A stretch of 64,000 bases of DNA from an uncultured bacterium (GTDB lineage Bacteria; Babelota; Babeliae; Babelales; Vermiphilaceae): assembly GCA_963781925.1 (NCBI GenBank), contig CAWAHQ010000002.1:25364-89363 (forward strand), given 5' to 3'. Below the pieces are notes generated by a model. That model saw nothing but the letters and a program-made list of their open reading frames with translations, searched no databases and had not been told where the DNA came from. Made by a program: the position numbers and the translations under genes. Of this stretch, positions 35,249 through 37,753 are shown one piece after another; the first letter of the stretch is position 1, and every line of letters begins with the position of its first letter.

Positions 35249-37753
35249 ATGGAAAAAAGATACGATCACCAGATATGCGAACCTGCAGCCCAGCAAAAAT
35301 GGCAAGCAGAACAGACCTACACAATGGAAAACAATCCGGGACAGCTATTTAGCATCGATACCCCTCCACCAACTGTTTCTGGAACCTTGCACATTGGCCA
35401 TATCTTCTCTTATACCCAAACCGATATCATTGCTCGCTATAAACGCATGAATGGATTTTCTGTCTTTTATCCTTTCGGATTTGATGATAACGGGCTTCCC
35501 ACCGAACGATACGTTGAAAAAAAGCGTAATATTCGCGGACACGAAATGTCTCGCTCAGAATTTATCGCACTGTGCATAGAAGAATCACTCTATGCAGCAG
35601 AAACATTTAAGAATCTATGGCAAAAAATGGGCCTTTCTGCTGATTGGAACTATGTTTATTCAACTATTTCTGATCAATCACGCAAAATTTCCCAAGCATC
35701 GTTTTTGGAACTCTATAAAAAAAATTACGTCTATCGCAAACAAGAACCGGCTCTTTATTGCACCACCTGCCGCACCTCAGTTGCACAAGCTGAGCTTGAT
35801 GATATGGAGCTCCCATCATTTTTTAATGATATCGTTTTCAAAGATTCCGATGGCAACGATTTGATCATTGGCACCACACGCCCTGAACTGCTGCCTGCAT
35901 GCGTTGCAGTACTGTATAACCCAACTGATATGCGCTATGGCCACCTCAAAGGCAAAAAAGCGATTGTCCCATTGTTTGGCCACTCAGTACCACTTCTTGA
36001 AGATGAATTAGTTAACCCAGAAAAGGGTACCGGGCTTGTTATGTGCTGCACCTTCGGAGATAGAACAGACATTATCTGGTACAAAAAATATAATTTACCC
36101 TATCATCAAGTCATTGGGCTCGACGGCAAGTGCACTGAATTGGCAGGATTTCTGCAAGGATTGAAGGTTGCTGACGCGCGCGTTGCTGTTCTTGAAAAAT
36201 TGCGTGAAGATAATCTGTTAATCCGTCAAGAAGCGATTATGCATTCAGTTAACGTTCATGAGCGGTGTAAAAAAGAAATAGAAATTACCGTATTGCCTCA
36301 ATGGTTTATTGCTATTTTGGCATATAAGCAAAAATTTTTAGACATGGCAGATCAGATCAATTGGCATCCAACATTTATGAAATCCCGCTACAGTGATTGG
36401 GTGAAAAATCTGGGCTGGGATTGGGGAATTTCTCGCCAACGCTTTTATGGTATTCCATTCCCCGCATGGCATTGCCAAGATTGTAATGCTATTTTACTCG
36501 CACAACCTGAACAATTGCCGATTGATCCACAAGAAACGCCCTATGATGGTCCGTGCACACAATGCGGCAGCAGCAATATCAAGCCCGATACTGACGTGAT
36601 GGATACGTGGAATACGTCATCACTGACGCCCTATATTTGCTATGAACTACTGAAAAAATCTGGAAGCGCTCATCCTGAACTTGTTGAAGGATCTAGCGCA
36701 ACAAATCCTTTTATAGACAAACAAATCTCAGATTTCCTCCCTATGAGTATGCGCCCTCAAGCGCATGATATTATCCGCACCTGGGCATTTGATACCATCG
36801 TGAAAACATGGATGCATCATGGCATCGCCCCTTGGAAAGATATTGTTATTTCCGGCCACGTCCTGAGCGATAAAGGCAAAGGAAAAATATCCAAAAAAGA
36901 TGGTACTGCCATGGATCCGATACTTTTATTGGAAAAATACCCAGCAGACGCAATCCGTTACTGGACAGCAACCGGACGCCTTGGGCAAGACATGATGTTC
37001 TCTGAAGAACAACTAGGCATTGGACAAAAACTCATCACCAAGCTGTGGAACGCCTTCCGGTTTGCTGAACCGCATATAGCAGAATATTCAACCCTGAACT
37101 CGCCCAATGAAATTGGTGCAATCAACCAATGGTTGCTTCACACCATCTCAGCTTGTTTTGCCAAATATCAACACTATTTTGAGCAACAAGAGTTTGGCCT
37201 AGCCCTGGATACCATTGACCAGTTCTTCTGGAATGATTTCTGCGATAACTATCTTGAATTGATTAAAAACCAACTATTCAATCCTGAGCTTTATTCTGAA
37301 CAAGAAGTTGCAGCAACACGCTGGACGCTCTATCAGGCAGGATTGCGCATTTTACAGCTTTATAGCCCGTATATACCGCACGCCTGCGAAACAATCTATC
37401 AAGACCTCTATTTTACGCATGAAAATATTGCCTCAATCCATCAAACACGCTATCAGGACATACAAATTCCATATGTTTTTGAATCTGAGGCAGATACCAT
37501 GAACAATGTTATTGCCATTGCAACGCAGGTACGCAAATTAAAATCTGAACGGCAACTTTCACTCAAAACGCCAATTACAACGATGCGTGTTTATGCGCAA
37601 ACTGACGATTTATCTGATGCTTTGCAACAGCATGATCAGCTGATCCGTGGCGTTACGCAGGCATCAGAAATAAAATATTGTGGACTAACAGATGAAAAAT
37701 CGAATCTAGCTGAAATAAACGGAGCATGGCACGCTCAGGTAATTTTGCAATAG
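35249..37753 (+). CDS. valS: Valine--tRNA ligase (archaeal/actinobacterial-type) with an in-frame repeat arm
   Basis: IDTPPPTVSGTLHIGH (HIGH region of this ValRS type), GFDDNGLPTE, KISKKDG (KMSKS variant), RPQAHDIIRTWAF. Confidence 0.8.
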   Translation: MEKRYDHQICEPAAQQKWQAEQTYTMENNPGQLFSIDTPPPTVSGTLHIGHIFSYTQTDIIARYKRMNGFSVFYPFGFDDNGLPTERYVEKKRNIRGHEMSRSEFIALCIEESLYAAETFKNLWQKMGLSADWNYVYSTISDQSRKISQASFLELYKKNYVYRKQEPALYCTTCRTSVAQAELDDMELPSFFNDIVFKDSDGNDLIIGTTRPELLPACVAVLYNPTDMRYGHLKGKKAIVPLFGHSVPLLEDELVNPEKGTGLVMCCTFGDRTDIIWYKKYNLPYHQVIGLDGKCTELAGFLQGLKVADARVAVLEKLREDNLLIRQEAIMHSVNVHERCKKEIEITVLPQWFIAILAYKQKFLDMADQINWHPTFMKSRYSDWVKNLGWDWGISRQRFYGIPFPAWHCQDCNAILLAQPEQLPIDPQETPYDGPCTQCGSSNIKPDTDVMDTWNTSSLTPYICYELLKKSGSAHPELVEGSSATNPFIDKQISDFLPMSMRPQAHDIIRTWAFDTIVKTWMHHGIAPWKDIVISGHVLSDKGKGKISKKDGTAMDPILLLEKYPADAIRYWTATGRLGQDMMFSEEQLGIGQKLITKLWNAFRFAEPHIAEYSTLNSPNEIGAINQWLLHTISACFAKYQHYFEQQEFGLALDTIDQFFWNDFCDNYLELIKNQLFNPELYSEQEVAATRWTLYQAGLRILQLYSPYIPHACETIYQDLYFTHENIASIHQTRYQDIQIPYVFESEADTMNNVIAIATQVRKLKSERQLSLKTPITTMRVYAQTDDLSDALQQHDQLIRGVTQASEIKYCGLTDEKSNLAEINGAWHAQVILQ
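36665..36692. repeat. Family-1 arm inserted in frame in valS (encodes SAHPELVEG)
   Basis: AGCGCTCATCCTGAACTTGTTGAAGGAT matches 27/28 the left arm of the intergenic palindromes at 10644, 33999 and 48273. Confidence 0.85.

Follow-up and report, generated by a model that had tools for sequence, protein, structure and literature searches.

How a piece of dispersed palindromic DNA could come to lie in frame inside an essential gene is the question raised by valS, the valyl-tRNA synthetase (ValRS) gene of an uncultured Vermiphilaceae bacterium of the Babeliales. The window considered here is the whole 64,000-nucleotide stretch at positions 25,364 to 89,363 of contig CAWAHQ010000002.1 (assembly GCA_963781925.1, forward strand), with a GC content of 38%. 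An earlier note, made from the letters of this window alone, had pointed to a short valS segment resembling one arm of several intergenic palindromes, and had likened the case to the Rickettsia palindromic elements (RPEs). The reading favoured here, at a probability of about 80%, is that the valS insert is a selfish hairpin DNA unit, dispersed and non-coding, which is tolerated in a permissive loop, as is the case with RPEs. Direct support comes from repeat identity, absence from most orthologs, empty sites, the low-confidence loop in which the insert lies and the repeated colonisation of ValRS and GpmI loops, as detailed below.

The 28-mer AGCGCTCATCCTGAACTTGTTGAAGGAT was located at 36665-36692 on the plus strand. 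Codon 473 of valS begins at 36665, the frame reads S-A-H-P-E-L-V-E-G between the conserved blocks DTWNTSSLTPY and MRPQAHDIIRTWAF, and the 834-codon open reading frame (ORF) stays open, as had been noted from the sequence. Repeat identity, ortholog alignment, RNA folding and model confidence delineate an inserted unit of 36 nt at 36665-36700 on the plus strand (AGC GCT CAT CCT GAA CTT GTT GAA GGA TCT AGC GCA), that is, codons 473-484 (S473-A484), encoding the peptide SAHPELVEGSSA. At the codon level, TCT GGA precedes the insert and ACA AAT CCT TTT follows it; the linker reads KKSG-SAHPELVEGSSA-TNPF, with native sequence again from NPF, and the peptide over the junction is SGSAHPELVEGSSATNPFIDK. 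The stems GCGCT (36666-36670) and ATCCT (36672-36676) pair with AGGAT (36688-36692) and AGCGC (36695-36699) around the loop GAACTTGTTGA (36677-36687), and these 36 nt alone fold as a hairpin at -12.9 kcal/mol in an RNA fold. The earlier note had described a palindrome arm inserted in frame. The in-frame insertion stands; the arm gives way to one complete solo hairpin unit, which includes the closing AGCGC stem, and the palindromes of the window are two such units head to head. The insert can be regarded as complete because the same solo units exist between genes elsewhere: identical ones were found in other Dependentiae, for example at L032:3182 and L048:3581, and a census of low-GC loci counted 40 solo units versus 14 doublets. 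The downstream sequence ATCCTT...CAAACAA, tried as a degraded right arm, was ruled out: it encodes the native N-P-F-x-D-K-Q, which is present in insert-free orthologs.

When AGCGCTCATCCTGAACTTGTTGAAGGAT was searched at up to three mismatches, nine other matches were found in the window versus 0.00 expected from 100 shuffles, at 10644(+)/10685(-), 14475(+)/14513(-), 22047(-), 33999(+)/34039(-) and 48273(+)/48314(-). Six of these nine arms are identical to the valS copy at 27 of 28 positions, their sole difference being the first base, which bears out the match claimed for the left arms at 10644, 33999 and 48273; the 14475 copy, said to be related, is indeed recovered at this threshold. With ten arms in 64 kb, the element is a multi-copy, dispersed palindromic repeat. 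Its unit has the core TCCTGARCTYGTYGAAGGA, flanked in this genome by GCGCT/AGCGC stems, and is found singly or as head-to-head doublets, the latter folding at -54.6 kcal/mol (z = -11.4). Such a short imperfect palindrome, found as singlets and inverted doublets and mostly outside genes, resembles the repetitive extragenic palindromic (REP)/REPIN type, REPINs being the hairpin-forming REP doublets. Only two copies of the window lie inside real genes, namely valS and gpmI.

The host gene valS (35249-37753, plus strand) is a single uninterrupted ORF of 834 aa. Its product is a class Ia ValRS in which the HIGH motif reads LHIGH and the KMSKS-like motif KISKK; it contains the Pfam domains tRNA-synt_1 and Anticodon_1, matches PDB entry 1GAX at E 6e-83, and its AlphaFold model aligns with 1GAX at a template-modelling (TM) score of 0.84 in Foldseek. 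The nearest database proteins are 60-83% identical, the labelled ones being Candidatus Babeliales/Dependentiae. Motifs, domains and fold thus all agree in predicting an intact class Ia enzyme. The model has a mean predicted local distance difference test (pLDDT) value of 90.4, and its sole segment with pLDDT below 50, residues 474-482, falls within the insert S473-A484. This segment sits in a loop of 22 residues that connects helices 460-470 and 493-496, ahead of strand 499-505, which starts the second Rossmann half. The mapping onto a structure proposed in the earlier note therefore places the insert in a loop, at a position that is predicted to be compatible with the ValRS fold. In bacterial leucyl-tRNA synthetase (LeuRS), the same region of the class Ia fold accommodates the leucine-specific insertion domain, so that the ValRS site is consistent with a permissive position. 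A second variable site is seen in ValRS after query residues ~613-622, where a few orthologs have lineage-specific inserts (25 residues in P0053, 15 in P0026).

Whether the 12 residues were gained or are ancestral was approached through an alignment of 120 Babeliales ValRS orthologs downstream of DTWNTSS, and through a codon comparison of six loci. The usual linker, from the ...ICYxLL helix to NPFxDKQ, has 8-9 residues (NKENS-NPF in P0004, NKESKS-TPF in P0007), and most of the 120 orthologs are without the insert. Only one of them, P0002 (locus L001, 83% identity), has this insert at the identical codon position; it carries GARPELVEGPSAT and reads GARPELVEGPSA. The lineage-specific insertion of roughly 10-14 residues that had been suggested is thus absent from most orthologs and amounts to exactly 12 residues, but it is not private to this organism, since the sister species has the same one. 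A single event most likely gave rise to the inserts of the window and of L001. Ortholog P0015 (L004) shows a decayed copy of the same length, THSESVQESSNK, which keeps 25 of the 36 nt and has lost the hairpin in an intact ValRS; the insert therefore appears to be dispensable. The comparison of filled and empty valS sites reveals a clean 36-nt insert with zero duplicated flank, so that the terminal inverted repeats plus target-site duplication expected of a miniature inverted-repeat transposable element (MITE) are not found together here.

Two findings that could have undermined this picture had been spelled out in the earlier note, and neither was made. The first was the same peptide in orthologs from repeat-free genomes: among distant metagenome orthologs (41-67% identity), the repeat peptide was found in 0 of the 51 readable linkers out of 80, the DVMDTW-to-PMSM distance in those 51 being 30-59 residues. 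The second was an assembly artefact: the same insert is present, at the same codon position, in the separately assembled L001, the flanks of which have diverged (77% nucleotide identity across valS). Chance resemblance is countered by the zero matches expected, and an origin of the intergenic repeats from valS by the occurrence of the core in many genomes and phyla whose ValRS is without it. Nothing was found in favour of any of these three explanations, which must be considered extremely improbable.

Contigs from one related metagenome provide empty sites at other positions as well. Loci L003 and L197 are ~78-84% identical to the window in nucleotide sequence and have gene order in common with it, and empty sites were recognised in these contigs at four places: valS, gpmI, upstream of rpsF, and the spacer of the 10644 doublet. 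In L197, the acetyltransferase and pseudouridine-synthase genes lie ~38 nt apart, and the homologous spacer of the window holds the 10644 doublet; the composite upstream of rpsF (~6326-6436) is likewise missing at the homologous L197 site, and no good core copy was found in the 21.5 kb of L197. Judged from these alignments, the pattern of presence and absence fits a repeat that is mobile or invasive in some other way. The same comparison revealed ~3.1 kb at 11334-14475 that are present in the window and absent from syntenic L197. The products of this segment are a PP2C-like phosphatase (11836-12834) and a secreted protein that is ankyrin-like (13137-13697), and repeats lie within it or at its borders (11562-11780 and the 14475 doublet).

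Several observations weigh against the proposal of a tolerated selfish unit, or at least against its simplest form. In a neighbour-joining bootstrap tree, P0001 (the ValRS of the window), P0002, P0004 and P0005 are grouped at 76%, and P0015 with P0017 at 70%; the pairing of P0001 with P0002 reaches only 42% and P0015 is placed elsewhere, which bears on the number and timing of the insertions. The tree did not settle whether the P0015 insert shares its origin with those of the window and L001. L001 is without any other repeat copy in 22.5 kb. No transposase, REP-associated tyrosine transposase (RAYT) or other mobilising gene was seen in the window or near the repeats of the examined loci, by inspection and with no profile search, and we infer mobility from presence and absence alone. 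Lastly, the insert is conserved at synonymous positions. Third positions match at 53% between the valS genes of the window and L001, versus 11 of 12 in the inserted codons (top 1.2% of 12-codon windows); across a slightly wider stretch of 14 codons, the 11 residues that are identical use the same codon in every case, versus 53% gene-wide (P ~0.001, post hoc). The two stem differences between both copies are compensatory (A-T to G-C). Although it relies on two sequences and post hoc tests, this conservation is suggestive of a constraint on the nucleic-acid hairpin, or of gene conversion, rather than of pure neutrality.

The first of these options would amount to co-option, with the hairpin in valS mRNA or DNA, or the 12-residue peptide, now under selection, perhaps because it pauses translation, signals RNA stability or binds a protein. 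It would account for the synonymous match, for a compensatory change that retains the hairpin (-14.6 kcal/mol in L001, versus -12.9 kcal/mol for the window copy), and for flanking linker residues that are more diverged than the insert itself. The overall identity of the two inserts, 32/36, is however only in the top 14% of windows, and the z-score of the hairpin is modest (-1.9). P0015 has lost both hairpin and peptide with its ValRS still intact, and most orthologs manage without any insert. Both stem variants (CAT...GGAT and CGT...GGAC) moreover pre-exist in the repeat family, so that the source copy or conversion may explain the pair. Taken together, co-option is considered unlikely.

If valS had received the unit from an intergenic copy nearby through ectopic gene conversion or template switching, instead of transposition, high synonymous conservation would also be expected, provided that continuing conversion keeps the insert close to the consensus. 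The valS copy is indeed of the CAT...GGAT variant, like all intergenic copies of the window and one base different from them; the neighbouring copy at 33999 has the loop-closing sequence most similar to its own (TCAAGCGC, versus TCTAGCGC in valS), and there is no sign of a target-site duplication. Conversion nevertheless requires flanking homology, which valS does not offer, and the insert comprises exactly one unit with clean borders. The sister genome retains its insert with no source copy in the 22.5 kb mentioned above, and the differing families and orientations found in the same loop elsewhere fit insertion better. This route appears quite improbable. Most probably, valS tolerates a selfish insertion that plays no part in the function of the enzyme.

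These other occupants of the ValRS loop, elements of the same repeat superfamily in other lineages, deserve a closer look. In P0020 (L002), the loop contains a full in-frame doublet (SAHPELVEG...PSTSSGRA), the 33-nt arms of which show 91% complementarity. In P0028 (L115), it reads FDRLRTNG...PFVLSLSKD, with the core CGTCCTGAGCTTGTCGAAGGA, and this insert has 13-mers in common with the intergenic repeats of the same locus (L115:5087-5420). Within the P0028 insert (L115:11375-11647), the first unit is flanked on both sides by the copies of a 17-nt direct repeat, AAATAAATTCTTTGTCG / AAATAAATTCTTTATCG, which might have arisen by slippage or represent a long target duplication. A second family (HSGRA...ARPEC...CIEG) occupies the loop in P0038 (L116), P0017, P0036, P0042 and P0047, and the L116 element has 13-mers in common with its own intergenic copy (5315-5440). 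The largest case was observed in the 79% identical valS ortholog of L143, where 747 nt (L143:3279-4025), all in frame between DVMDTW and RPQAHDI, add ~200 residues made of a family-B palindrome, the spacer of which holds tandem AAQNPNSIHSIQC-type repeats, and an ARRSLGEG element. Since the families, orientations and architectures differ, several independent events must have taken place in this loop.

A comparable situation is found in gpmI (14619-16202, minus strand), the gene for cofactor-independent phosphoglycerate mutase. A degenerate-core search of the window detected a second in-frame unit of the superfamily there, at 15546-15573 on the minus strand, which reads SFDRLRMTG and has the core TCCTGAGCCTGTCGAAGGA at 15554-15572. 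Most GpmI orthologs read VLTEKQxGPYESW at this position, the site of the closest one (L197) is empty, and other repeat peptides occupy this position in about 20 of 108 orthologs (SFDRLRMNG, SFDKLRMNG, LRQAQDER, FAKAS). Further in-frame units were observed at other Dependentiae loci, in a TilS-like PP-loop protein and in an FtsK linker. In-frame copies are thus present in genes of conserved proteins, with the ORF open and the insert absent from orthologs. A 50-aa repeat-peptide query gave no match in the protein database.

The following scenario can be proposed. The 36 nt at 36665-36700 would be one REP/MITE-like repeat unit that entered valS before the lineages of this organism and its sister species separated. 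The unit would have landed in one of the four of its six frames that are without stop codon, its length being divisible by three, and in a variable linker, between helix 460-470 and the strand opening the second Rossmann half. Open frame, multiple-of-three length and linker position together would explain why the enzyme stayed intact and simply gained 12 residues. Mobility was probably provided in trans, by an enzyme likely to act on single-stranded hairpin DNA, given that the units nest in one another's loops and that valS shows no target-site duplication. Such nesting is suggested by the composite doublet at 21904-22079, the right unit of which is intact (22047-22074): the loop of its left unit, GCGCTCATCCTGA...GTTGAAGGAT, is split by ~93 nt of GC-rich repeats, the modules of which include GCCATAGCCTTTTGGCGACGGCGTAAGCCTTGGCGAAGG. 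By analogy, loop nesting recalls elements acting on folded single-stranded DNA, such as those of the REP/RAYT and IS200/IS605 systems. Recurrence at one site may mainly reflect selection, which would spare only the insertions into permissive loops, and an existing element may in turn serve as a landing pad for later ones. Inspection of repeat-flanked ORFs in the examined loci and in the 11.3-14.6 kb region of the window showed no transposase-like protein, no profile search of the whole window or genome having been run. Small GIY-YIG nuclease ORFs were observed near repeat clusters at three unrelated loci (L115:5837-6115, L116:6788-7081 and L105:3651-4151). An association of GIY-YIG nucleases with the repeats is not claimed: a motif scan gave two hits, with few nearby ORFs, and the cases are too few.

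How far the core extends beyond this genome was examined in genome contigs (loci L006-L114) and viral contigs (L198-L302). The exact 23-mer was found in more than 109 stretches among the matches listed for species-representative genomes; its hosts among these matches are several Dependentiae, two metagenome-assembled genomes (MAGs) labelled Pseudomonadota and one Dehalococcoidia MAG. The latter, CBDBCU01, has 62% GC and at least 140 core copies in the loci examined; the core-bearing Dependentiae have 35-39% GC, and the two Pseudomonadota-labelled MAGs are of low GC. The 19-nt core was also detected in 105 IMG/VR stretches, on contigs of 31-72% GC. The core is thus near-invariant across very different genomes, usually with SCGYTCR before it. 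A universal outer stem around the core was rejected, the paired flank averaging 5.14 of 8 versus 4.93 in the shuffled control, with only some Dehalococcoidia copies having one. That this repeat was not known to have been described, as the earlier note stated, agrees with our searches: neither the Dependentiae genome literature (Babela massiliensis, TM6 comparative genomics) nor a wider literature search yielded any mention of such a repeat or of a repeat-derived peptide. It may tentatively be proposed, as a possibility that is so far doubtful, that the valS insert is one case of a cross-phylum superfamily of hairpin elements, with a near-invariant core, mutual loop nesting and repeated colonisation of ValRS and GpmI loops across Babeliales. 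If this were true, it would imply a site- or structure-directed insertion with a conserved trans-acting partner, and would represent a second RPE-like remodelling of a proteome, larger than the Rickettsia case. A core that is near-invariant across phyla raises the question of the factor that recognises it.

The remaining copies of the window complete this inventory. Four intergenic doublets were defined from the repeat matches: 10644-10712, with 28-nt arms that are 100% complementary; 14475-14540, downstream of gpmI, the right unit of which has partly decayed; 33999-34066, 1.2 kb upstream of valS; and 48273-48341, with 31-nt arms that are 97% complementary. The degenerate-core search added the composite GC-rich insertion upstream of rpsF (6326-6436), ~110 nt long, which contains a solo G/C-variant unit with its core at 6384-6402. 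A second palindrome family, with arms CCGTTCGCCCTGAGTG...TGTATCGAAGGG, is represented at 41067-41238, 23421-23584 and 28298-28458, and appears to be the same unit, the loop of which harbours a further nested hairpin, TCCTACGTAGCCTTGGCGTGGTAGGA. Its 41067 copy lies ~85 nt upstream of a tRNA gene (41323-41395). No Rfam family matched the repeats. A doublet at L035:6487-6612 gave a sub-threshold Rfam match to AaHKsRNA41 (Aggregatibacter small RNA 41), at 40.7 bits versus a gathering score of 97, which probably reflects long-hairpin similarity only.

RPEs, reportedly described by Ogata et al. in 2000 and 2002, are the closest known parallel. As in Rickettsia, dispersed palindromic repeats of an obligate intracellular bacterium are found both between genes and in frame in housekeeping genes, the ORFs stay open, the inserts lie in fold-compatible loops and copies decay in place. 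The comparison drawn in the earlier note holds as a description, because the insert is absent from orthologs, identical to an intergenic repeat and located in a low-confidence loop. The differences are nevertheless substantial: the host belongs to Dependentiae/Babeliales instead of Alphaproteobacteria, the unit measures 36 nt when solo and ~70 nt as a doublet versus ~100-150 bp for RPEs, the same loop has been struck repeatedly and independently in different lineages, and the 19-nt core is common to several phyla and viral contigs. The element clearly differs in length from the RPE sequence families (RPE-1 to RPE-10) and is not filed among them. For the RPE of R. conorii guanylate kinase, the effect of the insert on enzyme kinetics has reportedly been studied.

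Two other kinds of repeats invite comparison. REP/REPIN elements, mobilised by RAYTs (IS200/IS605-like Y1 transposases), are likewise short imperfect palindromes present as singlets and as inverted doublets folding into a long hairpin, mostly extragenic, in many copies per genome and with no evident target-site duplication. In contrast, no RAYT was seen here by inspection and a GTAG-type 5' motif is not consistently present; by definition, moreover, REPs are extragenic, and they are usually species-specific, whereas the present core is near-identical across genomes of 31-72% GC. RPEs are summarised in a review of MITEs (PMC10969869), according to which other MITEs make in-frame fusions more sporadically, namely intragenic enterobacterial repetitive intergenic consensus (ERIC) sequences, Coxiella QMITE1 and Anabaena MITEs. 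These too are non-autonomous repeats, the open frames of which permit translational fusion with host ORFs, but they have terminal inverted repeats, target-site duplications and links to parent insertion sequences (IS); the valS site has no target-site duplication.

To our knowledge, palindromic repeats that colonise essential genes in frame have largely been treated as a peculiarity of Rickettsia. The process itself is already known from RPEs; what is added to it are the recurrent hot spots and the cross-phylum core. In practical terms, such repeats are a source of spurious-looking insertions in MAG proteins, explain many repeat-derived 'hypothetical' peptides, and mark experimentally useful permissive sites in class Ia synthetases. 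An unrelated obligate intracellular lineage does the same as Rickettsia with a different and much shorter element, repeatedly at the same loops of ValRS and GpmI. This suggests that, under relaxed selection, protein loops can generally become longer and more diverse through selfish hairpin DNA.

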